Assembly (NCBI RefSeq): GCF_000023965.1
Contig: NC_013202.1
Span: 3,078,488-3,110,487, forward strand
Source: Halomicrobium mukohataei DSM 12286
Lineage (GTDB): Archaea; Halobacteriota; Halobacteria; Halobacteriales; Haloarculaceae
Direction of reading: 5' to 3'
DNA: 32,000 nt
Within the stretch, counting starts at the first letter, position 1. Each line of letters begins with the position of its first letter. The translations under genes and the position numbers were made by a program. A model generated the notes under the pieces. That model was not told where the DNA came from and did no database searches. It saw nothing but the letters and a program-made list of their open reading frames with translations. Positions 4,710 through 32,000 of this stretch are shown here, piece after piece.

Positions 4710-5081
4710 TCACGCGTACTGATCGTAGAAGTAGAGCCCGACCGCGACGAGCAGCGCGAACGAGCCGACGGTGTCGATCGAGCGCATCTGCGGGACGAGC
4801 TCGAACCCAGCGAGACCCTGATAGGCGATCGACAGCCCGGCGATGCCGAGTGTCGCCACCAGCGCGACCGCGACGGGCTCCGTCTCGCGGGCGCGACTGA
4901 TCCGCCGAGTGCCGACGCCACAGGCCAGTAACACGAGCACGCCGATGAGGAGGTCCGAGAGCGGCCCGGCGTAGGGATTCGTCGTCGAGAGTTCCGTGAC
5001 GAACAGCGCCACGTACACCAGCAGCGCACCGACGACGATCTGTCGCTGGCGCTGTGAGCGGATCGCGAAGATGTCTGTCAT
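4710..5081 (-). CDS. small integral membrane protein (about 4 TM, 123 aa)
   Basis: ATG at 5081 gives MTDIFAIRSQRQRQIVVGALLVYVALFV.... Only the C-terminal 123 aa of listed ORF 4710..5447 look like real protein. The upstream part is Arg/Thr-rich shadow sequence. Confidence 0.6.
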   Translation of the reverse strand: MTDIFAIRSQRQRQIVVGALLVYVALFVTELSTTNPYAGPLSDLLIGVLVLLACGVGTRRISRARETEPVAVALVATLGIAGLSIAYQGLAGFELVPQMRSIDTVGSFALLVAVGLYFYDQYA

Positions 5082-5229: not shown

Positions 5230-5889
5230 GTGGCACCGACAGTGGCGTCTGTGCCCTCCAACACAGACAGCGACGGTCCGCGAGACGTAGCCGCCGTCGT
5301 GCGTCGATACCGACGGCTCGAACGACCGATCAGCGCCGGCATCGCCGTCCTCGTCGGACTCGTCGCGGCCGTCGCGATCATCACGCTCCCGCTGGTGGTC
5401 GGCCTCGCGGTCGCCCTCGCCGTGTTCGTCGCCGTCCGCGTCCCCATCTTCGAGACCGGCGGGACGACGACGCTGTCGACCCAGCAGCGTCCCGACGAGG
5501 TGCGTGCGGCCTTCGAGAGTGCCAGCCCGCCGCCGCTGGTCTTCCAGTGGGGACTGGCCGACGAGGTCGAACAGACAGACGGAGGCTGGTCCTACGAGAT
5601 CTCGTATCTCCTGGGACTGCGGTCGGTCCGACTGCACGTCGAGACCCACTCCGGCGACGACGCCGACCTCGAACTGGTGGTCACCGTCGGCGACCAGTCG
5701 TGGGGGACCTACCGCGTCGACATCGAGGCCCGCGACGACGAGACGATCGTCGTGATCGACACGACCTCGGATCGCAGATTCGGCCTCCGACGGCTGCCAC
5801 AGTGGTTCGTGGGCCAGCGATACCGGGTGGCGGCGCTGTCCGCACAGGGCTACACCGTCGTCGAGCAGGACGCGCGACTGACGCTCTAG
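5230..5889 (+). CDS. hypothetical membrane-anchored protein (2 TM plus soluble beta-rich domain); start uncertain
   Basis: In-frame GTG candidates lie at 5230, 5242 and 5251. The sequence is ...RRYRRLERPISAGIAVLVGLVAAVAIITLPLVVGLAVALAVFVAV, then an acidic domain (WSYEISYLLGLRSVRLHVETHSGDDADLELVVTVGDQSWGTYRVDIEARDDETIVVID). The upstream part of listed ORF 4996..5889 is shadow-like. Confidence 0.55.
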   Translation: MAPTVASVPSNTDSDGPRDVAAVVRRYRRLERPISAGIAVLVGLVAAVAIITLPLVVGLAVALAVFVAVRVPIFETGGTTTLSTQQRPDEVRAAFESASPPPLVFQWGLADEVEQTDGGWSYEISYLLGLRSVRLHVETHSGDDADLELVVTVGDQSWGTYRVDIEARDDETIVVIDTTSDRRFGLRRLPQWFVGQRYRVAALSAQGYTVVEQDARLTL

Positions 5890-6146
5890 CGCCGCTCGAC
5901 GACCCGGTCGATCGTCAGCCGGTCGTAGCCCAGCCCCTCGTGGACCGCGAGCTCCAAGGCGTTGACGAGATAGTGGGCGACGACGACCACGAGCAGGCTG
6001 TCGGTGAGGACGAACCCGGCCGCCAGCGCCAGACCGAGCCCGCCGGTGACGAGCATCCCGACTCGCCCCTGCGCGCCGTGAGCGGCACCGAAGACGACCG
6101 ACGAGGCTGCGTGCAGCCACGGCGAGAGAGAGAAGCCAGCGGTCAG
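5886..6146 (-). pseudogene. 3' fragment of a CPBP (CAAX/Abi) protease gene; truncated duplicate of 7739..8551
   Basis: It translates to ...LTAGFSLSPWLHAASSVVFGAAHGAQGRVGMLVTGGLGLALAAGFVLTDSLLVVVVAHYLVNALELAVHEGLGYDRLTIDRVVERR*. This matches the C-terminal ~80 aa of the full gene, but there is no N-terminal part and no start. The stop (5886-5888) overlaps the convergent gene's stop. Confidence 0.8.
5908..6105. repeat. direct repeat, copy A (partner 7755..7952)
   Basis: Hand alignment gives 198 bp with 5 mismatches and an offset of 1847 bp. Weaker similarity continues to about 6146 / 7993. Confidence 0.9.
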
Positions 6147-6493
6147 CGCGCTAGGCGAGACCGTGACCGTCGAGAGTGTTGGCGACCATACGGGCGGCGA
6201 GGTCAGCCAGCTTTACGTGAAAGACCCCGTCAGATCGAAGGTCACGCCGTCCCACAAGATCTGTGGGGAAGAGTGCGTGCGTTTCGACGACAGTGAGTCG
6301 ACGACCGTCAAGTTCGACCACACACCCACGATCGGGCAACCATCATGTGACCGGACGGCGAGAAGCACGTCGAGGCCGACAGCTTCGAACCGATCGTCGG
6401 CGAGGACACTGTCCGGCTCGAAGTCGCAGACAGAGTTATTTATAATCGATTATAGACGCTGTCTTTTTCTTCAAACACCGGAAATATATTCAC

Positions 6494-7321
6494 TCACAAC
6501 ACAGCCTCTGCCTCTTCTTGGTCTTCCGGATACGACCATGAATCCGCACCTGTATCAATATTCACCCCGAGCGGAGGATATGTAAGAACAACACTTTCTA
6601 AGAAATTAAGACCAGCATTCCCAAATACGCTCCAGGTGTGTTCGTATGTTCCTGCGATTCTGCCCGGTACCCTATCCGGGAAGTTTTGTTTGTTCAGAGT
6701 GAATTGGAGGCTTCCAACAATTTTCTCCGGATGCTGGAAGCTCAAATCATTATCACTTACTTTTATTCCAACTGCTGAGGCACCATCACTGCCGATAGGG
6801 TTGTCGTCAGGTTCTTCGGTTTTAATGTCTTCAACTTCTCCAGATGTGCTGTACCCCTGGCAACTATGTTCGATAGAATCACTACCATCTAATCCAAATT
6901 GGCTGTCCTCCCATCCAATAACTACTCCATCTTTGGGTGGTGCTCCGTCAATGTCTACTTTTTCTTGGAAAAACAAGCTCCAGCTTAGCATAACATCAAT
7001 CTTTTTGCCGAGATCATTTGCCATAAATTGGCAATTTGATTCGCTTGAGTCATAATGGCTGAAAAAGTCTTGAGTTTGGACCGAATCTGATTTTTCACCC
7101 GGCGAGAATTCGCCAGTTAGATCATTTGCTTTGAGTTTAAAGCCCGCATGCTCAGCGAGAGCATACGCTTCCTCAAAGTTTTGGTTAGCAACCGCCGTCT
7201 GGATTTGACTCCGAATATGCTTTTTATGTCTCCCACGACTCCCTTGTCCCGAGACAGTTGCGCTAATGAATGGTACTGATAGGGCGGTACCTGCGGTCTT
7301 TAGAATCGATCTTCGATCCAT
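6494..7321 (-). CDS. secreted orphan protein with twin-arginine (Tat) signal peptide
   Basis: ATG at 7321 gives MDRRSILKTAGTALSVPFISATVSGQG..., that is, RR plus a hydrophobic stretch plus A-x-V-S-G. The mature part is about 250 aa, acidic and beta-rich, with 2 Cys. Codons are AT-rich. No family recognised. Confidence 0.7.
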   Translation of the reverse strand: MDRRSILKTAGTALSVPFISATVSGQGSRGRHKKHIRSQIQTAVANQNFEEAYALAEHAGFKLKANDLTGEFSPGEKSDSVQTQDFFSHYDSSESNCQFMANDLGKKIDVMLSWSLFFQEKVDIDGAPPKDGVVIGWEDSQFGLDGSDSIEHSCQGYSTSGEVEDIKTEEPDDNPIGSDGASAVGIKVSDNDLSFQHPEKIVGSLQFTLNKQNFPDRVPGRIAGTYEHTWSVFGNAGLNFLESVVLTYPPLGVNIDTGADSWSYPEDQEEAEAVL

Positions 7322-7428
7322 ATTGCAGATTGACATTCGTATAGACATGTATTAAATGTATGTAATTAGGATATAAACTCCTATAGTATATCACAAAATA
7401 CTTATATGTGTTGATAATTATTTTAGGT

Positions 7429-7611
7429 ATGGATGAAATCAAAGGATACCTATCAATTATAACAATTCTCCTCGGAATTCAGACACTCAACGCGGTTTCT
7501 GATAACACGAGCAGTCTTTTTACTGAAGTTGGAGCAGCCCTCTCCATCTTAGTGATACTTCTTGTCCCAATTTTCCTCCTCGGAAAAGCAGTCCACTCGA
7601 AATTGCGATAA
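7429..7611 (+). CDS. 60-aa two-TM membrane protein (island family, copy 1)
   Basis: The sequence is MDEIKGYLSIITILLGIQTLNAVSDNTSSLFTEVGAALSILVILLVPIFLLGKAVHSKLR. It has the same length as 26659..26841 and 29/60 identical residues by hand alignment, with little DNA identity. This argues for real coding sequence under selection. It is divergent from 6494..7321. Confidence 0.65.
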   Translation: MDEIKGYLSIITILLGIQTLNAVSDNTSSLFTEVGAALSILVILLVPIFLLGKAVHSKLR

Positions 7612-7738
7612 TATGATCTTCTGAGGAAGTTAAGCATGTGGTAACAAAGTGGCTCGTCGCGCGGCGATACCGCAACGAGCCGTTGGCCGCATAGGGGTAC
7701 AGGGTCGTCGACCGAGAGACCGAGCTCTCGTTCGGAAG

Positions 7739-8551
7739 TTAGTCGATGAGCGTCTCGATCGTCAGCCGGTCGTAGCCCAGCCCCTCGTGGACCGCGAGCT
7801 CCAGGGCGTTGACGAGGTAGTGGGCGACGACGACCACGAGCAGGCTGTCGGTGAGGACGAACCCGGCCGCCAGCGCCAGACCGAGCCCGCCGGTGACGAG
7901 CATGCCGACGCGCCCCTGCGCGCCGTGGGCGGCACCGAAGACGACCGACGAGACGACCGCGAGCAGCCACGGCGAGACGGAGAATCCGGCCGCCATCGCG
8001 CCGATGGCAGCGCCACGGAAGACGACCTCCTCGACGACGGCGACGGTCGGCAGCGCGACGCCGAGCAACAGCACCCACCCACCCAGTGAGTCGGGGGCGA
8101 GCAGTTCGCGGACGGCCTCGTCGTAGCCCGCACCGGTGGCGTCGGCGACTGCACCCGCGGCTTCGTTGGCCAGCCAGAGGGCGACGCCGAAGCCGATCCC
8201 GACGGCGACGCCGGGGAGCCCACGGGCGAGCGCGGTCTCGGGGATCCCGAGCGCCCACGGCGGGATCGAGAAGTACACCGCGGCCCCGACGACGACCGCG
8301 CCGAACAGCCCCTGGGTCACGACGACGTTGGCGAGCAAGGCACCGGGCGACAGCCGCGCCCGCGGGTCCGCTACCGGCCGCTCGAAGCGCGGCACGACCG
8401 GGTCGGTCGGTCGCGGATCGCGTGGCGAGGGCTCCCTGAACCGGACTGGGTCGTCGTCGCCGCTCAGGGCAGACTGGGACGCTCTCGCGAGTGCGAGAAG
8501 CAAGAACAGAGAGAGGGCGAGCAGGCCGGCGAAGGCGGCCCACCGCGCCAC
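7739..8551 (-). CDS. abi: CPBP family intramembrane glutamic endopeptidase (CAAX protease / Abi)
   Basis: 270 aa with multiple TM helices. Motifs present are EEVVFRGA (EExxxR), FGAAHG (FxxxH) and HYLVNALE (HxxxN). The GTG start lies 4 nt after the lonB stop on the same strand. Confidence 0.85.
   Translation of the reverse strand: MARWAAFAGLLALSLFLLLALARASQSALSGDDDPVRFREPSPRDPRPTDPVVPRFERPVADPRARLSPGALLANVVVTQGLFGAVVVGAAVYFSIPPWALGIPETALARGLPGVAVGIGFGVALWLANEAAGAVADATGAGYDEAVRELLAPDSLGGWVLLLGVALPTVAVVEEVVFRGAAIGAMAAGFSVSPWLLAVVSSVVFGAAHGAQGRVGMLVTGGLGLALAAGFVLTDSLLVVVVAHYLVNALELAVHEGLGYDRLTIETLID
7755..7952. repeat. direct repeat, copy B (inside the intact CPBP gene)
   Basis: See 5908..6105. 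Confidence 0.9.
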
Positions 8552-8555
8552 GGTT

Positions 8556-10637
8556 CTACTGCGGGCTGGGTGAGCCGCTCTGCTGGCCCACTTCGCGTTC
8601 GAGCGCTTTGCCGGTGATGGACTTGAGCCGGTCGACCAGCGAGTCCTTCTCGGGCTCGCCGGCCAGGGCCACTTCCAGCACCTCGGAGATGTGCGAGACC
8701 GGGACGATCTCGATCATCTCCTCGTACTCCTCTTCGATCATCACGTCCTGGGTGTTTGCCTCGGGGATGATGACCGTATCGAGCCCGGACTTGGCCGCGG
8801 CCTCGATCTTGTGGGTCACGCCGCCGACGGGCAACACGTCGCCCCGCACCGACAGCGAGCCGGTCATCGCGAGGTTCTGCTCGATCGGAACGTTCTCCAG
8901 CGCGGAGATGACCGCCGTCGCGACCGTGATCGAGGCGGAGTCGCCGTCGACACCGCCCTCGCCGGCCTGAACGAACTGGATGTGAACGTCCTTCTCGGAG
9001 ATGTCCTCGTCCGAGAACTTCTTGATGATCGCCGAGACGTTCTGGACTGCCTCCTCGGCCATCTCCTTGAGCTGGCCGGTGGCGATCACCTGACCGGGAC
9101 CCTGCGAGGGCGTGACCTCCGCCATGACCGGGAGGACGATCCCGCTGTCCTCGCCCATCACGGCCAGACCGTTGACGCGGCCGACCACGTCGCCCTCGTT
9201 GACGGTCAGTTCGTAGTCCTTGCGGCGTTCGATGTAGTCGTCTGCGAGCTGTTGCTCGATGGAGCGACTCCGGCCTTTGGCCTGGAGCACGTCCTCGCGA
9301 GTGGTCACGTCCTGATCCTCCGCGCGGGCGATGTCGCCCGCGACGCGGACCAGTCCGCCCAGTTCGCGCAGTTTCAGGGTCAAGTGCCCTTTGCGGCCCG
9401 CGCGGCGGCGGGCTTCGAGGATGATCTCCTCGACGGCCTCGCGGTCGAAGTGGGGGAGTCGCCCGTCGTTCTCGACTTCCTGTGCGATGAAGCGGGTGAG
9501 CTTCCGGCGCATCTCCGGGGTGTCCTCGATGGTGTCGTCCATGTACACCTCGTAGCCGTACCCCTTGATCCGGGAGCGCAGCGCGGGGTGCATGTTCTCC
9601 ATGGCGTCGAGGTTCCCCGCCGCGATCATGATGAAATCACAGGGGACGGGCTCGGTCTGGACCATCGCGCCCGAGGAGCGCTCGGACTGGCCAGTGATGG
9701 AGAACTCGCCCTCCTGGATCGCGGTCATGAGTTTCTGCTGGCTGCGGATGTCCAGCGTGTTGATCTCGTCGACGAACAGGACGCCCTTGTTGGCCTTGTG
9801 GATCGCGCCGGCCTCGACGCGGTCGTGGCTGGGCGTCTCCATCCCACCGGACTGGAACGGGTCGTGGCGAACGTCGCCCAGCAGCGCACCGGCGTGGGCA
9901 CCGGTCGCGTCCTCGAAGGGCGCGGTGGTCTGGTTCGCGCGGTTGACCAGCAGGTTCGGGATCATCGAGTCGTTGCCACGCGAGCCATAGCGGAAGGCCA
10001 GGTAGATGACACCGGCCGCGAGGATCCCCAGCAGGACCGACCCCTGGATGATCAGCGCGTAACCGATGATGATGGCGATGATGATCCACATCAGGAAGGT
10101 CCGCATCTGGTTTCGCTTGCGGGCCTCCTCCTTGTGGGCGTCGACGATCTGTTCGCCCTTCCCGGCGGGGACGGTTCGAACCTTCGGCTCGTTTCCGTCG
10201 TCCGGGTTGTGGTAGACCAGAACGTCCTGTAGTTCCTCTTTCGGGAGCAGTTGGCTCATCGCTTTGGCCAGCATCGACTTGCCCGTCCCGGGCGAGCCGA
10301 TCATCATCACGTGACGGCGCTGTTTGGCTGCCTTTTTGATGACGTCACGGGCGTGGTCCTGCCCGATGACCTGATCGACGAGTCGGTCGGGGACTTCGAT
10401 GTCGCTGGTCGACTCGATGCCGAGCCCACCGAGGAGCCCGTCTTCGTCGTCGAGGGACGCGCCGCTCTCGACTTCGACCTCACTGCCGAGGTCGTCGAGG
10501 CCGCCACCTTCGGCCCCGCCACTCTCCACAGTGTCACCAGCGTCGTCGGCCGCGCTGTGGTCGTCGTCTTCGGGCGGCGTCCCGGTCACCTCCCGCTCGT
10601 CGTCGGGAGTGTCGTCGATCTCGGTATTGTCGCTCAT
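8556..10637 (-). CDS. lonB: archaeal membrane-bound ATP-dependent protease LonB
   Basis: ATG at 10637 (MSDNTEIDD...). It has Walker A GSPGTGKS, two TM helices inserted in the AAA+ domain (MRTFLMWIIIAIIIGYALIIQGSVLLGILAAGVIYLAF), and a Lon protease domain with GDSASI (catalytic Ser) and the downstream GGV.HK block. The listed 10757 start adds non-protein-like sequence. Confidence 0.9.
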   Translation of the reverse strand: MSDNTEIDDTPDDEREVTGTPPEDDDHSAADDAGDTVESGGAEGGGLDDLGSEVEVESGASLDDEDGLLGGLGIESTSDIEVPDRLVDQVIGQDHARDVIKKAAKQRRHVMMIGSPGTGKSMLAKAMSQLLPKEELQDVLVYHNPDDGNEPKVRTVPAGKGEQIVDAHKEEARKRNQMRTFLMWIIIAIIIGYALIIQGSVLLGILAAGVIYLAFRYGSRGNDSMIPNLLVNRANQTTAPFEDATGAHAGALLGDVRHDPFQSGGMETPSHDRVEAGAIHKANKGVLFVDEINTLDIRSQQKLMTAIQEGEFSITGQSERSSGAMVQTEPVPCDFIMIAAGNLDAMENMHPALRSRIKGYGYEVYMDDTIEDTPEMRRKLTRFIAQEVENDGRLPHFDREAVEEIILEARRRAGRKGHLTLKLRELGGLVRVAGDIARAEDQDVTTREDVLQAKGRSRSIEQQLADDYIERRKDYELTVNEGDVVGRVNGLAVMGEDSGIVLPVMAEVTPSQGPGQVIATGQLKEMAEEAVQNVSAIIKKFSDEDISEKDVHIQFVQAGEGGVDGDSASITVATAVISALENVPIEQNLAMTGSLSVRGDVLPVGGVTHKIEAAAKSGLDTVIIPEANTQDVMIEEEYEEMIEIVPVSHISEVLEVALAGEPEKDSLVDRLKSITGKALEREVGQQSGSPSPQ

Positions 10638-10795
10638 ACAAACGTTGCTAACACCAGATTGGAGGGACTGTCCACTGATATACTTTCTCCCCGCGACCGT
10701 GCTTGCCACACGAGTGGAACCGCAAGAGGGGAGCCGATTGTAGAGGAGAGAGACCACTCGTCGGGTTTATCATTTCCGACACCCAGAGATGGGGT

Positions 10796-25345: not shown

Positions 25346-26407
25346 ATGAGCCCCAGACTGAACGGTCGCCGCGGTCTCGTCCTCCTCCTGGTCGCCGCCG
25401 TCGCCGTCGCTGGCTCGGCGGCAGTCACGGGCGCGTTCGCCACGTTCCAGCAGCCGACGGGCGACGAGGTGCTCGACGGGGTCGAACAGCGGTACGAGAG
25501 CGCCGACTCGATCACGAGCACGGCCACCGTGACCGTCGAAAACGAGAGCGCGTCGACGACGGCCACCGTGGAACTGGCCGCAGACGACGAGAATCGGACC
25601 CGGATGGTCGTCGAGCGAAACGGCGAGACGGTGCGGGCGGGCTCGAACGGCACCGTCGCGTGGTACGTCGGTCCGAACCGATCGGCCGCCTGGTCGGTCG
25701 ACTCGCTCGAAGGCGAGGCCGGCGAGCAGTGGACCGGAGCCGAGGGCGAGTACGGCGAGACGAGCGAGCGCCTCGCACCCGACGGGACGCCCGCACTGAA
25801 CGCCTCGAACGCCTCGGCGACGGTCGTCGGGACGCCGACGGTCGACGACACCAGCACCTACGAGGTCGAACTCACGCACCCAGAGGCCGACGGATCGACG
25901 ACGCTGTGGGTCGCCCAAGACGACTACCGCGTCGTCCGGGCGGTCGCCACCGACGGCACGAACCGCACGGTCGTGGCCGTCGAGTCGACGGTGTTCGACG
26001 TGTCGATCCACGACAGCACCTTCGACCCGCCGACGGATCGCGTCGCGCTGACGACGGTCGATCGCTACGACAGCTTCGACGCCGCGCAATCGGCGACGGA
26101 CCTGTCGCTGCCGACCCTCGACGCGAGCTTCACCGAGGCGACGGTGACGGTCCGACAGGGCGAGACCATCGTCGGCCAGCGCTACGTCGACGACGGGGCG
26201 AACGTGACCCTCCTCTCGACGACCGCCGACGATCGCCTCGATCGACTGACCGAGAACGCCACCGAGCGAACGGCCGACGGCCGGACGGTCCACGTGACCA
26301 CGGACGAGGACCGCGCCATCGCGGTCTGGCAGAACGACGGCGTGACGACCGCGGTCGTCGTCGAGGGATCGAGCGACAGAGCGGTCGAAGTTGCGGGCGA
26401 GCTGTAA
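25346..26407 (+). CDS. secreted LolA-like / lipoprotein-sorting-fold protein (two-domain)
   Basis: It has an N-terminal signal/anchor (RRGLVLLLVAAVAVAGSAAV). Beta-rich domains follow the pattern Y.SADSITSTATVTVEN...RMVVERNGETVRAGSNGTVAWYVGPN, typical of LolA-like proteins. It is divergent from the MacB-type ABC pair. The assignment is by pattern only. Confidence 0.55.
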   Translation: MSPRLNGRRGLVLLLVAAVAVAGSAAVTGAFATFQQPTGDEVLDGVEQRYESADSITSTATVTVENESASTTATVELAADDENRTRMVVERNGETVRAGSNGTVAWYVGPNRSAAWSVDSLEGEAGEQWTGAEGEYGETSERLAPDGTPALNASNASATVVGTPTVDDTSTYEVELTHPEADGSTTLWVAQDDYRVVRAVATDGTNRTVVAVESTVFDVSIHDSTFDPPTDRVALTTVDRYDSFDAAQSATDLSLPTLDASFTEATVTVRQGETIVGQRYVDDGANVTLLSTTADDRLDRLTENATERTADGRTVHVTTDEDRAIAVWQNDGVTTAVVVEGSSDRAVEVAGEL

Positions 26408-26658
26408 TCTGGGAAGCGACCCCGAGCAGGAGCAGCGTCACACATCGTCCAACAGGCTCGTCGCACTCATCTTTCGAATTCTTGCTGCCTTCGTCCGTGA
26501 GATCAGAGGACATGTCGCTTCAATCGGTGTGTAACGATTCACCTGCTCCGACCACGAGCACACCGTTGTGCCGCGTGATCAGTTGTCCGCAATATCGAGA
26601 CTGCTAATTCCGATCCATGTTGCTACACAGTTATGCCGATATTTGATGTGGATGTGAG

Positions 26659-26841
26659 TTATCCGACCATAGAATAGACGATGCGACCAACGAGATACAG
26701 TGGGAGAATCAGAAGAACCAAAATGGCGATTGCGCTCCCTATGTCCTGAAACAGGCCACTTGTACTGTCTGAGACGATCTCAAGCGTAATTATGGAAAGT
26801 AAAACCGTAATGATTGCAAGGTATGAATTTTCTGACTCCAT
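26659..26841 (-). CDS. 60-aa two-TM membrane protein (island family, copy 2)
   Basis: The sequence is MESENSYLAIITVLLSIITLEIVSDSTSGLFQDIGSAIAILVLLILPLYLVGRIVYSMVG. It is a paralogue of 7429..7611 and shares the loop motif VSD(N/S)TS(S/G)LF. Confidence 0.65.
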   Translation of the reverse strand: MESENSYLAIITVLLSIITLEIVSDSTSGLFQDIGSAIAILVLLILPLYLVGRIVYSMVG

Positions 26842-27343
26842 GTGTATAGAAACCCAGTACAGATACAGATCATATTTCTTTCGGAACAAATAAGATCAAC
26901 GGAAAGATCTGCTGGGTGTGGGTCAGACACTGTTAGAGCGCGAGGAAGACAGCCAATGCGGGTTATACTGCCAGCTGTACGTCTGTGAAGAATTTCGCGA
27001 TCCCGTGATCGCGAATCTCTTGCAATAGTTACAGCCGGCAGTAGTAGCAGGAGGTTGTCAGATAAATTGAGGCGGTTCAGGATACGACATTGAGATTTAG
27101 CTAACTATACTACGAGATAATAGTCTCTGGTACAGAGAGTTATAAAACAGCTCACAGTGGGATTAATCTCAGGACTATATAGTATGAATTGGCCACTCGG
27201 TCCGTGTGCATATTTACCGTCACTATTCTGATAAACCTGATTGTACCCACAGAAATGAGCAAGATACAGGACGTGGATCTTGGAGAAAAGTGAACGGTAG
27301 GTACAGGGGAAAGTGATACCGAGATAGTCCATTCCCAAATGTA

Positions 27344-28390
27344 CTATTTGTGACGGCTTGCAAAGGGAGACTCATCAAAGCTGATGAAATCTAATTTTTC
27401 AGAACTACCTTCAATATCTGAACCGAATTCTTTCTGTAGATGTCGGATTGCATCTAAACATTCCTCATGTGCACTTCTAACTGTTTCTTTGTCCGGCAAA
27501 TAGCCTTCGTGTACCACTTTATTTCTAATTTCATAGAAATCATCATACCACTGGTCAAATCGGCAATAGTCCTCGAACTCGACTCCGGCCTTTGGATAAT
27601 GGTCGGTGACGATATTGTAGATAGCATAATACTGTCCAGAATCATCCTGAATGGATTCTCGAGCCTCTAATTCAGTATTTTCTGAAGATATTTTAGCAGC
27701 GACGAATGCGTTTTTTGCCCATGACTCAAACAGATTGAAGCTGAGAATGATAGCCGTTCTAAATTCACCCAGATCAACTTTATTTAATACATCTAGATGA
27801 AGTTGTAGATAGGTATTAGCAGACTCATTATTCTTAAGTGCTTCAGCCATTTGACGGGCTTTATTTTCAGTAAGTCCAGTTTTGGCACCTAACTCAAGAG
27901 GGCCTCCAGTTACAGAGCGGTTGCGAAAGCCACGCTCATCTGTTCGTATCCGAAACCTAATGATATCTTCAACTACAAGGGGGCGTATCCAATGATAACC
28001 AGTATTCTGTCGATAGTGTTGAAGAAATTTATTGAGAGCCATTATAACTGATTTAATCGCACGTCCCTCACGGTCTTGCATACTGGAACCCATCATAGCG
28101 ACTGCTCCGGGTATCTCGTCCGGCCCACCTGCCGGAATGGATTTGTACACGTCATGATGAATGGTTCCCTGAACTTTCGAACGGGTCGCTTTCCCAAGCC
28201 GATCTCGCTTAACCGTTACTGTTCCTTCAATTCCGGAATCACCAGATGTTCGCTCAAAGCTTAATCCGAATGGGTGTCCAAAAACTTGCGGAAAAAACAT
28301 CGGGCCGTCATCGTCGGATTCAATTCCATCAGGTACCTCGATATGGTATGGAATTTCAAATCTGACCAAGACGTGTTGCATACGAGCCAT
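27344..28390 (-). CDS. orphan 348-aa protein: N-terminal unknown domain plus C-terminal HEPN-like helical domain (Rx4H)
   Basis: ATG at 28390 (MARMQHVLVRFEIPY...). The C-terminal ~150 aa are helical (TYLQLHLDVLNKVDLGEFRTAIILSFNLFESWAKNAF ... WYDDFYEIRNKVVHEGYLPDKETVRSAHEECLDAIRHL) and contain RNKVVH (27509-27526), which fits the HEPN Rx4-6H motif with the common R-N start. Codons are AT-rich. Confidence 0.65.
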   Translation of the reverse strand: MARMQHVLVRFEIPYHIEVPDGIESDDDGPMFFPQVFGHPFGLSFERTSGDSGIEGTVTVKRDRLGKATRSKVQGTIHHDVYKSIPAGGPDEIPGAVAMMGSSMQDREGRAIKSVIMALNKFLQHYRQNTGYHWIRPLVVEDIIRFRIRTDERGFRNRSVTGGPLELGAKTGLTENKARQMAEALKNNESANTYLQLHLDVLNKVDLGEFRTAIILSFNLFESWAKNAFVAAKISSENTELEARESIQDDSGQYYAIYNIVTDHYPKAGVEFEDYCRFDQWYDDFYEIRNKVVHEGYLPDKETVRSAHEECLDAIRHLQKEFGSDIEGSSEKLDFISFDESPFASRHK

Positions 28391-28653
28391 AACGATACTC
28401 AAGAACCCTTAATATTTCTCGCAGCTCTTCTATCTTCGAGTATATCGAACAGTCTACGTATTTACTGGTCGGATGGTCTTTTAGTTTTTCTTATCTAAAG
28501 AGGCCTATTCTACAAGGCCCAGACCCTGTATTAAATGATTAACTGGTATCACAACTGCTCTGTGACGCCCCTTTGATGTAACTGACACGCAGCCAACTCT
28601 ATTCTGTGTAGAATTCGGCAACGCTTACGGCCCCCGACCTGTTTTCCCGATGC

Positions 28654-29493
28654 ATGACAGACGAGGCGACGGCGTTCGTGCCCGGTCACGTGACGGGCTT
28701 TTTCACGACCGATCCGGCCGACGATCCGACGAAAGCGGGATCGCGCGGGGGCGGGCTCGCGTTGGCCGACGGCGTGACCGTCACCGTCGAGCGCAGCGAC
28801 GAGCGATCGGTGACGCTCGACGGCGTCGACATCGAGATCGAAGCCGTCGAGCGCGTGCTGGACGCGCTGCGAGCGACCGTCGCGGTGCGAGCGGAGACGC
28901 CGCTGCCGCTGGGCTCGGGCTTTGGCGTCTCGGGGGCGACCGCGCTTGGGGCGGCGCTGGGGACCAACGCCCTGCTGGAGCGGGGGCTCTCGGAGAACGA
29001 ACTGGTGACGATCGCACACGGCGCGGAGGTCCAGGCCGGGACCGGGCTGGGCGACGTGGTCGCGCAGGCCCGCGGCGGCGTCCCGCTGCGGCTCGAACCG
29101 GGCGGGCCACAGGACAACTACATCGACGCCATCCCGGCACGCGGCCGCGTCGAGTACCACGTCATCGGCGAACTCTCGACCGAAGCCATCCTCGACGGCG
29201 ACACCGCGGCACTGACCCGTGCCGGCGAGAAAGGGCTCTCCCGGGTCGTCAAGGAACCGACGACGGAGTCGTTCCTCCGGGCCTCGCGCCAGTTCGCCCG
29301 CGAGGCGGGGCTGCTGACCGACGACGTGCGGTCGGTGCTGGAAGACGTGGCGGCGGCCGACGGCGACGGCGCGATGGCGATGCTCGGAGAGACGGTCTTT
29401 ACCGTCGGCTCGGGGCTGACCGACGCGGGCTACGACGCGACGATCACCGAGATCCATCCCGGCGGTGCGACGGTGCTCGACTCGTCTGACTGA
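28654..29493 (+). CDS. pantoate kinase (archaeal CoA pathway, GHMP kinase superfamily)
   Basis: AFVPGHVTGFF at the N-terminus, the GHMP motif PLGSGFGVSGA, and GTGLGDV. About 280 aa, as in archaeal PoK (COG1829). Confidence 0.8.
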   Translation: MTDEATAFVPGHVTGFFTTDPADDPTKAGSRGGGLALADGVTVTVERSDERSVTLDGVDIEIEAVERVLDALRATVAVRAETPLPLGSGFGVSGATALGAALGTNALLERGLSENELVTIAHGAEVQAGTGLGDVVAQARGGVPLRLEPGGPQDNYIDAIPARGRVEYHVIGELSTEAILDGDTAALTRAGEKGLSRVVKEPTTESFLRASRQFAREAGLLTDDVRSVLEDVAAADGDGAMAMLGETVFTVGSGLTDAGYDATITEIHPGGATVLDSSD

Positions 29494-29574
29494 TACGGAC
29501 GGTCGTCGGAATGTACCGGTGAGCGTCTACCCCATGGCGACGCTCACCGGTAAGCAACTACAACGTTCCGTATG
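29492..29574 (-). ncRNA. conserved ~84-nt hairpin element, copy 2 (opposite orientation to copy 1)
   Basis: The minus strand reads CATACGG, N4, TTGTAGTTGC, a 14-bp perfect stem (29514-29527 / 29539-29552) with an 11-nt loop, N14, and TCCGTATC. It lies about 37 nt 3' of the MFS transporter stop in sense orientation. Confidence 0.55.
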
Positions 29575-29611
29575 ATACGGGACCGCTCGACGAGGGGCCG
29601 TACGACCGCGC

Positions 29612-31018
29612 CTATTCGCCCGAGTCGCCGACGGCGGCCGCGGGCGTCGACGAGACGTTGCTCCGGAGGTCCGCCTCGATCGCTTCCAGGGACCGCCCCT
29701 TCGTCTCGGGCACGAGGCGGTAGGTGAACACGAGCGCGACCAGGCTACAGAGTCCGAACAGCCAGAACGTCGAGGGCTGCCCGACGCTGGCGGTCAGGAC
29801 GGGGAAGGCCAGCGAGACCGCGAGGTTCGCGCCCCAGTTGGCGACGGTGACGAGCCCCATCGCGCTGCCACGAGTCGCCAGCGGGTAGATCTCGGAGATG
29901 AGTAGCCAGAAGACCGGGCCGAGCCCGATCGCGAAGAAGGCGACGAACAGCATCAGGCTGCCCGTCGCGATCCAGCCCAGCGCGCCGCCGAAGCCGGGCA
30001 GGTAGAAGACGACACCGAGGATGCCCAGCGTGACGACCATTCCGCCGACACCGACCAACAGGAGGACGCGTCGGCCGACCCGGTCGATCAGTGCGATGGC
30101 GACGACCGTCATGACGACGTTGATGACGCCGATCCCGACCGTCGCGAGGATCGACGTGACGCTGCCGAAGCCGGTCGATTCCAGAATGGTCGGGGCGTAG
30201 TAGATGACCGCGTTGATCCCGGTGATCTGCTGGAAGACGGCCAGCCCGAGGCCGACGATCAGCGCGGGGCGCATCCACGGCTGGAGCAGGTCGCGCAGGC
30301 CGGTGCCGGACTGCTTTTCGACGGTCGAGCGGATCTCCGCCAGCTCCTCCTCGACGCCTTCCTCACGGGTGCGTGCGAGGACGGCACGAGCCTCGTCCAC
30401 GCGGCCGTTTTCGAGGAGCCAGCGAGGGCTCTCGGGCATCTTGACCATCCCGATCGCGAGGACGACCGCCGGCACCATTCCGGCACCGAGCATCCACCGC
30501 CACGCCCCCGCGTCGGCGAAGGCGTAGTTGACGAAGTACGAGACGAGGATACCGACGGTGACCATCAGCTGGTTCAGCGAGGTCAACGCACCGCGGATCT
30601 TCGGCGGCGAGATCTCGGAGATGTACAGCGGGCCGACGATCGAGGCGAACCCGATCGCGACGCCGTCGATGAGCCGTCCGGCGACGAGGACCGGCACCGA
30701 CGGGGCGACGGCCATGGTGAGCGAGCCGACGAAGAACACTCCGGCACCGAGCAAGATGAGCCGGCGGCGGCCGATCCGGTCCGCGAGTCGTCCGCCGACG
30801 GCCGCGCCGAAGGCGGCTCCCGCCATCGCACCGCTGACGACGATCCCCTCGACGAGCGGGGACATCGTGAACGTGTCTTGGATGTAGAGGAACGCTCCGG
30901 AGATGATTCCAGTGTCGAACCCGAACAGGAGGCCGTTGAGCGCGGCGAGGGCGGCCGAGAGGTAGATGAACCGCCCCCCGTCGCCGTCCAGAACGCGCCG
31001 GAGTTGTGCTGTCGACAT
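29612..31018 (-). CDS. MFS sugar porter family transporter
   Basis: ATG at 31018 (MSTAQLRR...). It has 12 TM helices and the sugar-porter signatures GFDTGIISGA, GRLADRIGRR, PESPRWL and PETKGRSLE. Confidence 0.9.
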   Translation of the reverse strand: MSTAQLRRVLDGDGGRFIYLSAALAALNGLLFGFDTGIISGAFLYIQDTFTMSPLVEGIVVSGAMAGAAFGAAVGGRLADRIGRRRLILLGAGVFFVGSLTMAVAPSVPVLVAGRLIDGVAIGFASIVGPLYISEISPPKIRGALTSLNQLMVTVGILVSYFVNYAFADAGAWRWMLGAGMVPAVVLAIGMVKMPESPRWLLENGRVDEARAVLARTREEGVEEELAEIRSTVEKQSGTGLRDLLQPWMRPALIVGLGLAVFQQITGINAVIYYAPTILESTGFGSVTSILATVGIGVINVVMTVVAIALIDRVGRRVLLLVGVGGMVVTLGILGVVFYLPGFGGALGWIATGSLMLFVAFFAIGLGPVFWLLISEIYPLATRGSAMGLVTVANWGANLAVSLAFPVLTASVGQPSTFWLFGLCSLVALVFTYRLVPETKGRSLEAIEADLRSNVSSTPAAAVGDSGE

Positions 31019-31208
31019 GTGTGAATCCCACACGAGCGTTTACAACATCTATAAAGAAGGCTTGCGATTTATCATCAAGATACGATCATGAAATAGTAGA
31101 GATGACAGTGTAGTACTTCAGTAAAGCGGTTACCGGCTAAAAAGAGATGGTAAGAGATATGTAACGATGGAGCGATGGACTTTCGACGCTCGGCGGCGAC
31201 GTGTCTCC

Positions 31209-31952
31209 ATGAGCGAGATCGACGTTCCGGAGTCTCACCCTCGATACGAGTCGCTGCTGACCCGCCACCGGATCGAGGACGGGGTCGAGACGGGCATCAC
31301 CTCGAAACAGGGACTCATCGCACAGGGCCGCGGCGAGGCGTTCGACTATCTGCTCGGCGAGCGGACGACCGACACCGCCGCCGCCGCCGAGCGGGCCGCC
31401 GCGGCCCACCTCCTGCAGGCCGACCACGCCGTGCTCTCGATCAACGGCAACGTCGCCGCGCTGGTTCCCGGAGAGATGGTCACGCTGGCCGAAGCGACCG
31501 GTGCCGACCTGGAAGTGAACCTCTTCAACCGGACGGCGGCGCGGATGGAGCGGATCGCCGACCACCTGCGCGAACACGGGGCCGAGGACGTGCTCGGACT
31601 CACCGCCGACGGCCGGATCCCCGGCCTCGACCACGAGCGCGCGAAGGTCGACGCCGACGGCATCGGCGACGCCGACGTGGTGCTGGTCCCGCTGGAGGAC
31701 GGCGATCGCGCCGAGGCGCTTGCCGACATGGGCAAGACCGAACTCGTCGTCGATCTCAATCCCCTGTCCCGGTCGGCCCAGACCGCCGCCGTGCCGATCG
31801 TCGACAACATCATCCGGGCCGTCCCGGCGATGACCGAGCACGCCCGAGAGCTGGCCGGCGACGAGGCGGCCCAGCGCGAGGCGATCGAGTCCTTCGACGC
31901 CGCGGAGGCGCTGTCCGCGGCCGAGCGGGCGATCCGCGACGGCGAACTCTGA
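31209..31952 (+). CDS. 4-phosphopantoate--beta-alanine ligase (phosphopantothenate synthetase, archaeal CoA pathway)
   Basis: MSEIDVPESHPRYESLLTRHRIEDGVETGITSKQGLIAQGRGEAFDYLLGE...LSINGNVAAL...VPLEDGDR...DLNPLSR is typical of the COG1701/DUF137 PPS family. Confidence 0.85.
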   Translation: MSEIDVPESHPRYESLLTRHRIEDGVETGITSKQGLIAQGRGEAFDYLLGERTTDTAAAAERAAAAHLLQADHAVLSINGNVAALVPGEMVTLAEATGADLEVNLFNRTAARMERIADHLREHGAEDVLGLTADGRIPGLDHERAKVDADGIGDADVVLVPLEDGDRAEALADMGKTELVVDLNPLSRSAQTAAVPIVDNIIRAVPAMTEHARELAGDEAAQREAIESFDAAEALSAAERAIRDGEL

Positions 31953-32000
31953 AGGGCGTCCTGTCGCACAGTCGACCGGAAGGCGTTTTTGCGACCGCTC

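Follow-up and report, generated by a model that had tools for sequence, protein, structure and literature searches.

The chromosomal stretch analysed here (32,000 nucleotides (nt) of Halomicrobium mukohataei DSM 12286, NC_013202.1; hereafter the window) carries, at the 3' end of the CPBP/Abi protease gene that follows lonB, a small AT-rich island (Island I), around which the convergent junction between the CPBP gene and its neighbour, here called geneX, is present twice. The junction copy that ends the functional protease gene (copy B) is xenologous to the one still attached to the resident geneX (copy A), copy A is itself a mosaic, no integrase was found in any version of the island examined, and the same architecture recurs with homologous cargo in a distant haloarchaeal lineage. 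We lean, at slightly better than even chances, towards reading Island I as an integrase-less cassette that was inserted by host homologous recombination, is kept uniform by gene conversion and can be removed by crossover between its repeats.

Results

Anatomy of the duplicated junction

A repeat search pairs 5896-6105 with 7743-7952 (95% identity over 210 nt, spacing 1847) and, at unchanged spacing and 73% identity, 5798-5864 with 7645-7711, the 3' end of geneX. In total, about 358 base pairs (bp) of the CPBP/geneX convergent junction are found twice, around an insert of about 1490 bp. The window is 100% identical to CP045142.1 and RZNE01000001.1, its proteins match ACV49301.1 and ACV49299.1 of DSM 12286, and the features referred to below are these (aa, amino acids):

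5251..5889, plus strand: geneX, resident convergent gene for a hypothetical membrane protein of 212 aa (ACV49299.1), with a 4-bp overlap between its stop and that of copy A
5886..5907, minus strand: copy A tail (..DRVVERR, then stop), a resident-type CPBP C-terminal tail; nt identity 79% to the tail of the island-free Halomicrobium scaffold L009 and 54% to the copy-B tail
5908..6105, minus strand: copy A core of 198 nt; 97.5% identity to copy B, the 5 differences all synonymous
6106..6151, minus strand: copy A left part, decayed, with a 3-nt deletion and non-synonymous changes and without the three lineage-specific states of copy B
6154..6434, plus strand: frameshifted C-terminal remnant (Fn3-like domain) of a GH3 glycosidase gene; 72.8% nt identity to the intact GH3 gene downstream of CPBP in lineage L004
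6494..7348, minus strand: cargo gene 1, a 284-aa protein with a twin-arginine signal; closest homologue P0132 (in contig L011)
7429..7611, plus strand: cargo gene 2, a 60-aa, apparently two-helix membrane protein; in all island-bearing Halomicrobium, with paralogues in Island II and L011
7644..7742, plus strand: geneX', a pseudogene fragment with the last ~32 codons of a foreign geneX and an in-frame TAG at 7692-7694; adjoins the copy-B tail and CPBP stop
7739..7754, minus strand: copy B tail (..ETLID, then stop), the surrogate C-terminal tail that ends the functional CPBP gene
7755..8001, minus strand: copy B, made up of core (7755-7952) and left part (7953-8001), wholly within the intact CPBP gene
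7739..8551, minus strand: intact CPBP/Abi (Rce1-like) intramembrane protease gene, 270 aa (PF02517, E = 2.9e-14), directly downstream of lonB
8556..10757, minus strand: lonB, given for context, directly upstream of CPBP on the same strand

Realignment confirms the gapless match of 5908-6105 with 7755-7952 and its 5 mismatches in 198 positions, as described in a first-pass annotation of this DNA; they lie at 5957, 5970, 6057, 6063 and 6081, and all five are, as had been stated, synonymous in the CPBP frame (TTG, TAT, GGG, CGA and GCT in copy A for CTG, TAC, GGC, CGC and GCC in copy B). The weaker continuation noticed at the time is real and reaches 6151/8001 at 73% identity with a 3-nt indel; the left part alone (6106-6151 against 7953-8001) gives 73-77% with that one indel. 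The junction repeat is, hence, a mosaic of segments with 77%, 97.5% and 54-65% identity, near-identical only in its 198-bp core. Also correct were the overlap of the copy A stop with the gene that ends at 5889 and the AT-rich stretch (G+C of 39-46% at 6401-7600 against 65-75% around it). The last seven codons of copy A, however, had been taken for unrelated sequence and turn out to be homologous to the CPBP tail of L009 (IDRVVERR vs IDGVTERL). At the opposite end of copy A, the GH3 remnant abuts abruptly at 6151-6154, where a possible GCGC microhomology is not significant in GC-rich DNA.

The two junction copies differ in origin

The geneX' fragment beside copy B (WLVARRYRNEPLAA*GYRVVDRETELSFGS) shares ~75% aa and 81% nt identity with the geneX C-terminus of L015, a sister lineage represented by a metagenomic contig, as opposed to 43% aa and 65% nt identity with the resident geneX, whose end diverges by 5.5% between Halomicrobium clades. 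Because geneX' is 19% away from L015 and 35% from the resident gene while the clades are only 5.5% apart, it is not a decayed copy of resident geneX. Judged by their sequences, the two junction copies are xenologues, at least one of which was imported.

ET-type CPBP tails are native in L015, L016 and L006 and are also carried by most of the closest non-Halomicrobium CPBP homologues, and the tail of L003 (a Halomicrobium of the clade that we call K) equals that of L015 at 25 of 28 nt. Copy B follows CPBP collinearly as far as the conserved ..GYDRLTI codons, after which an L015-like tail and geneX' take over. In lonB, the window diverges by 8.3% from L015 and by 9.1/9.2% from the other lineages; in the CPBP 3' half/repeat, the values are 9.8% and 17/19%. 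Over lonB and 5' CPBP the window is thus equally far from L015 and L016, and only in the 3' half does it come nearer to L015. This 3'-ward fall in relative L015 distance is consistent with a recombination breakpoint within CPBP. Resident geneX is equally distant from all three sister lineages, L015, L016 and L006 (55-61% aa identity). We consider it probable that the copy-B side was imported and that copy A is resident, rather than the other way round. The previous proposal that the island brings a surrogate gene end and displaces the original one is thus probably right, with the copy-B tail on the island side and a start-less 3' end still fused to resident geneX.

The repeat core appears homogenised

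From the synonymous nature of the five core differences, the first-pass annotation had suggested that both copies diverged as functional genes, most likely in separate genomes. This is not supported, since the copy A core shares three of three mukohataei-specific derived states with copy B (CGN Arg codon, GGT) while the copy A left part has none of the three states specific to copy B in that segment. Divergence between the copies is 5/198 in the core and 10/44 plus an indel in the left part (Fisher test, p = 2e-5). Between Halomicrobium lineages, the island diverges as much as, or more than, four-fold degenerate sites of the flanking genes; at or above the neutral level, this indicates that the island predates the mukohataei/katesii split. 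As the cores nonetheless coalesce after that split, we infer that the core was homogenised by gene conversion, the tract being presumably limited by the indel at one end and by tail heterology at the other. Efficient gene conversion is documented for polyploid haloarchaea (PMC8223754).

At four of four polarisable core differences, copy B has the state of the other lineages. That all five differences are synonymous is suggestive, but it could also be due to chance, to remnants of allelic divergence that conversion did not reach or to import of a conspecific allele. A near-identical repeat core with nothing other than synonymous changes can arise by gene conversion and is, on its own, no evidence of functional divergence in separate genomes.

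Relatives with and without the island

In the sister lineages L006/L007, L015 and L016/L017, all metagenomic contigs, CPBP directly converges on geneX with a 4-bp stop overlap. The empty site that had been predicted for close relatives was found in the Halomicrobium scaffold L009, where the CPBP gene terminates in LTIDGVTERL with a 4-bp overlap with the geneX orthologue; copy A of the window passes into resident geneX just as CPBP does there (92.8% over 1.5 kb), and L009 6553-6910 maps onto both copies (window 8001-7642 and 6149-5795). Compared with island-bearing clade-K genomes the flanks of L009 are ~99% identical, so that island presence and absence occur within one clade. With L009 nested in an island-bearing clade, a secondary loss or a collapsed repeat is more likely than the ancestral state. 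A simple deletion from an L003-type island was considered as its source and rejected, as 8 bp (GATCGACG) would have to be recreated.

Every island-bearing Halomicrobium locus examined has the tail, geneX' and the 60-aa open reading frame (ORF), which together make up the part of the island next to CPBP. Clade K (L003, L010, L020, L024) has a shorter GH3 remnant, a 538-bp replacement and a resident tail reduced to its last 20 bp, and the L003 insertion begins at the same point as the copy-B switch (after ..GYDRLTI). Because the longer GH3 remnant of the window cannot be regenerated, the window-type island appears to be ancestral and the clade-K form derived. In H. katesii (L008), island homology breaks at an IS1595-family transposase. 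This transposase gene (L008 7531-8478; Pfam DDE_Tnp_IS1595, E = 1e-6; PHROG 8828, E = 7e-88) sits where homology stops within the 284-aa ORF, at window ~7026, and synteny with geneX is lost beyond it.

Clade-K CPBP genes (L003, L009, L010; 6553-6797) show 11 clade-specific substitutions in the 245-bp repeat region and 9 in the preceding 552 bp, three of the clade-K changes being amino-acid replacements at positions conserved elsewhere (F->Y, D->N, L->M). Conversion from a decayed copy A, lost in the meantime, may have left this pattern.

Downstream of CPBP, other lineages differ further. L004/L005 have, in place of geneX, an intact gene for a 735-aa GH3 glycosidase (7003-9210) convergent on CPBP, and L013 has neither geneX nor GH3. 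Across lineages, the stretch that follows CPBP is a hotspot of rearrangement. Scanning genome contigs with CPBP gave at least three loci, and a metagenome scan with geneX gave one further clade-K locus and otherwise distant geneX homologues among the matches listed.

A second instance of the architecture

The metagenomic contig L011 begins within a CPBP 3' end (..AHYLVNALELTIHEGLGIDRLG, then stop), continues with a 62-aa homologue of the small membrane ORF on the opposite strand and a 277-aa homologue of the 284-aa protein (P0132), and closes with a start-less CPBP 3' fragment (..HEGLGIDRLGA, then stop) whose stop shares 4 bp with a convergent gene other than geneX, one with a PF01035 domain. 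Its repeat (1-65 against 1417-1481) is 65 bp long, 100% identical and clipped by the contig start. The L011 CPBP is of the H. salinisoli/urmianum-group type and ~63% identical to the window protein. Since the same cargo and architecture occur in so distant a lineage, the unit looks like a two-gene cassette with CPBP repeats rather than the stump of a larger element. A contig start inside a 100%-identical repeat, as in L011, is what assemblers commonly give when they break at repeats, and the L009 'empty site' could have arisen in the same way.

Searches for an integrase or a mobile form

Pfam and PHROGs scans revealed neither an integrase nor a remnant of one among all ORFs of the window island and the main island ORFs of L003, L010 and L008; none was present in the L020/L024 islands examined or, by Pfam annotation of its ORFs, in L011. 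The same two scans gave no transposase among the window island ORFs, and the sole one nearby is the secondary IS1595-family insertion in H. katesii. Searches of the region for tRNA genes and Rfam families returned nothing relevant. With the C-terminal 78 aa of CPBP as tblastn query we obtained no match in phages or plasmids, IMG/VR scans with the full CPBP protein and the 284-aa ORF gave no match either, nor did a search of plasmid records with that ORF, and blastn of 6106-7754, a check that had been proposed for relatives of the element, yielded zero matches in plasmid and phage records. A free or full-length form bearing an attachment site (attP) was not found in phage, plasmid and IMG/VR collections, the scans of chromosomes and metagenomes being incomplete.

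The first-pass annotation was therefore right about the missing integrase; its view of the island as the decayed remnant of a larger element was not borne out, as all island versions examined, L011 included, are without one. An attL/attR pair of the integrase type, which it had favoured, is not supported for the same reason and for want of any phage, plasmid or IMG/VR relative. Of the hallmarks of such sites, a short identical core with element-specific arms is absent, chromosomal geneX' running into what would be the 'element arm', whereas an empty site exists (L009, L006/7, L015, L016/17). A displaced resident 3' fragment kept downstream in its native context (copy A; L011) is what homology-driven displacement of a gene end would leave.

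Host gene and copy A

In Haloferax volcanii, lonB and abi (CPBP) form a single transcription unit, and no phenotype was evident for an abi null mutant (PMC4343526). CPBP tails differ solely in the last 5-8 residues past the last conserved motif, and the effect on the host gene would be small, the change being limited to 5-8 non-conserved C-terminal residues of the protease. For geneX, a Pfam search gave no match. Copy A holds an ATG-initiated ORF of 56 aa (5886-6056, minus strand), which is annotated as a gene (P0128) in one public assembly. Because a run of at least five T is not evident from the geneX stop to ~6460, transcription of geneX may continue across copy A, which, if true, would give RNA antisense to the CPBP 3' region.

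Cargo, Island II and a neighbouring inversion

A word-based homologue search with the 284-aa ORF found one relative only (P0132, 42-44% identity). By search with a hidden Markov model, its family is small (44 representatives), with a conserved twin-arginine signal and the motifs AWEDSxFG and YxHTWS; the two named members that were checked are haloarchaeal hypothetical proteins, and the sole plasmid homologue (Haloprofundus) has neither a CPBP fragment nor a small ORF nearby. An AlphaFold model built from 28 sequences is a beta-sandwich (mean local confidence, pLDDT, 70.6), one from 2 sequences having been discarded as unusable (pLDDT 43). Compared with the PDB, the former gives weak matches only (template modelling (TM) score <= 0.28), to toxins of the leukocidin/alpha-haemolysin type and to adhesin or CBM beta-sandwiches, from which modelled resemblances we assign no function. 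The 60-aa ORF differs between window and clade K at 6-9 synonymous and 8 non-synonymous codons.

A second island (Island II, ~26400-28800) contains a small membrane ORF of 76 aa (26659-26889, minus strand), inverted relative to its Island I paralogue of 60 aa, with which 66 aa align at 47% identity (tblastx, E = 2e-18). The island also has an orphan ORF of 352 aa (27344-28402) with no Pfam match, and direct repeats flanking Island II were not found. In the sister lineages compared (L006, L016, L004, L013), the 123-aa gene that in the window neighbours geneX is followed by GHMP kinase and PPS genes. In Halomicrobium, the GHMP kinase/PPS genes lie ~23 kb away, inverted and adjoining Island II, and the 123-aa gene adjoins Nre (window 4710-5081 and 28654-32000). 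From this displacement, a genus-level inversion of ~22-24 kb follows, one of its junctions being at Island II.

Discussion

The mechanism that we prefer is inferred in all its steps. Incoming DNA would have carried, along with the cargo, a CPBP 3' segment with an ET-type tail and ~100 bp of foreign geneX from a relative of the L015 lineage, and host homologous recombination would have used the conserved CPBP 3' coding region as homology arm, be it through Campbell-type crossover of a circle or through a homology-anchored event with an illegitimate end at the GH3/copy A junction. The imported tail (copy B) would thereby have become the end of the functional CPBP gene, with the resident 3' end left on geneX as the start-less copy A, whose left end would then have decayed and whose 198-bp core would have been re-homogenised with copy B by gene conversion. 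Crossover between A and B could remove the island precisely, and L009 is best explained as such a repeat-crossover deletion, or as an assembly collapse. Homologous replacement between haloarchaeal species has been reported (PMC3542582).

Several points weigh against this reading. Its polarity is not proven, the structure being symmetric in that each junction copy consists of one whole gene and one fragment, and the breakpoint signal in CPBP is only marginally significant. The left part of copy A is 86% identical to clade-K CPBP and 73% to L015, for which segment a simple Campbell model with an L015-like donor was a poor fit. Clade-K isolates are without copy A altogether, so that the duplication is not obligatory, and L009, a metagenome assembly, could be a collapsed repeat. 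Neither a circular or linear intermediate nor a donor genome with the full arrangement was found, and the architecture is known from two instances only. Finally, five synonymous changes out of five are somewhat unlikely under conversion followed by neutral decay of copy A (P ~0.002-0.045, depending on the mutation model); as evidence for divergence in separate genomes, the use to which the first-pass annotation had put it, the count is suggestive only.

How, then, do other scenarios fare? The one originally put forward, in which the repeats are attL and attR of a site-specific element that entered the CPBP 3' end, carried a surrogate end and has since lost its integrase and most genes, would account for a gene kept intact by an element-side tail with its displaced end preserved (an anatomy like that of icd and icdC at prophage e14; PMC13626634), for the occupation of the same gene position by homologous cargo in two distant lineages and for the existence of an empty-site variant. 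We nevertheless regard it as unlikely, since no integrase is left in the window, L003, L010, L020/L024, L008 or L011, and parallel decay to the same two genes would be a strain on credibility; moreover, the collections of phages, plasmids and IMG/VR hold no element-borne copy of the CPBP 3' end, the 'surrogate' takes in 100 bp of a neighbouring chromosomal gene, the repeat is long and mosaic in place of a short exact core, and haloarchaeal elements of the SNJ2 type nearly always overlap a tRNA gene at one border (PMC5861418). A single ancient insertion into an ancestor shared by these Haloarculaceae lineages, inherited vertically with converted repeats and repeated losses, L011 being the same event, is a little easier to entertain, although we doubt it. 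Cargo proteins at 42-44% identity have diverged far beyond what a recent transfer would leave, the island predates the splits within Halomicrobium, and loss by repeat crossover is easy, perhaps with L009 as an example. Such immobility would, on the other hand, demand at least 4-5 independent losses (L015, L016/L006, L004, L013, L009), leaves unexplained why the copy-B junction but not copy A is L015-like, and sits poorly with the different downstream genes of L011 and Halomicrobium.

The polarity might also be reversed, so that the copy-B tail and geneX' are vertical, their geneX having been destroyed by the AT-rich insertion, and copy A arrived together with full-length geneX, anchored on the geneX side. 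L015 groups with Halomicrobium (informative sites with L004 as outgroup: lonB 43 vs 10/17, CPBP 13 vs 6/3), its native junction has an ET-type tail and a fragment-like geneX end, the nearest non-Halomicrobium CPBP homologues are mostly ET-type tailed, and the architecture is, as said, symmetric. What makes this full scenario improbable to us is that resident geneX stands equally far from L015, L016 and L006, as vertical descent in a near-trichotomy predicts, that the extra closeness to L015 is confined to the CPBP 3' half, tail and fragment, as import on the copy-B side predicts, and that in L011, too, it is the start-less copy that has the 4-bp overlap with the local gene downstream. Least probable by far is a plain local duplication of the junction at insertion, similar to a long target-site duplication, and random substitution thereafter. 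It would yield an insertion flanked by direct repeats at identical spacing; the copies differ from each other (35% in the geneX part, unrelated tails) more than either does from other lineages, the fragment is nearer to L015 than to the resident gene, and divergence along the repeat is strongly heterogeneous. Duplication in situ followed by decay is, accordingly, contradicted by the L015-like fragment and by that heterogeneity.

If Island I is indeed an integrase-less cassette placed by host recombination, accessory genes can settle at the end of a conserved gene, and be removed again, with no dedicated recombinase, the sole requirement being that the cassette travels with the conserved 3' coding sequence of its target. 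In polyploid and recombination-prone haloarchaea this may be a common and overlooked route to small islands, and the direct repeats, displaced gene end and 'empty site' that it leaves as footprints would resemble att sites. A bolder version, to which we attach little confidence, sees a recombinase-free mobile unit whose portable arm of homology is a fragment of the target gene ('attP by homology') and which so enters, stays uniform in and leaves the lonB-CPBP end of different haloarchaeal genera by way of host recombination, the secreted beta-sandwich protein and the small membrane protein perhaps being a toxin/immunity-like pair tied to CPBP/Abi.

Comparison with known systems

Minimal mobile elements of Neisseria are likewise integrase-less cassettes and move by homologous recombination in conserved flanks; their flanks are two different genes and the target is not duplicated, whereas the arms of Island I are the same gene end. 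With haloarchaeal tyrosine-integrase elements of the SNJ2 type, Island I shares AT-richness and flanking direct repeats into which a host gene's 3' end extends, but these elements encode an integrase and nearly always have a border in a tRNA gene (PMC5861418), and Island I does neither. Another parallel is the C-terminal displacement seen in Rhs, CdiA and type VI secretion system (T6SS) effector loci, a homology-facilitated illegitimate recombination in which a conserved upstream coding stretch serves as anchor, a new 3' module supplants the old one and the old piece is moved downstream as an 'orphan' (PMC5361080, PMC3240628). There, toxin domains and immunity genes are swapped under diversifying selection, while Island I alters 5-8 non-conserved residues of a protease and has its cargo outside the gene.

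In anatomy, a close parallel is offered by the icd gene of Escherichia coli, which is occupied by e14 and, in a similar manner, by phage 21. As with Island I, e14 lies in the 3' end of a protein-coding gene, its element side supplies the alternative end and the original end is kept as a start-less fragment (icdC) at the far end; the differences between the copies are mostly synonymous, and recombination between them removes the element and yields a chimeric gene (PMC13626634). The two part company in that e14 is a 15-kb prophage with an integrase and a defined att core, whereas Island I, at ~1.5 kb and with no recombinase, has a mosaic repeat and a surrogate end that brings along part of the neighbouring gene.

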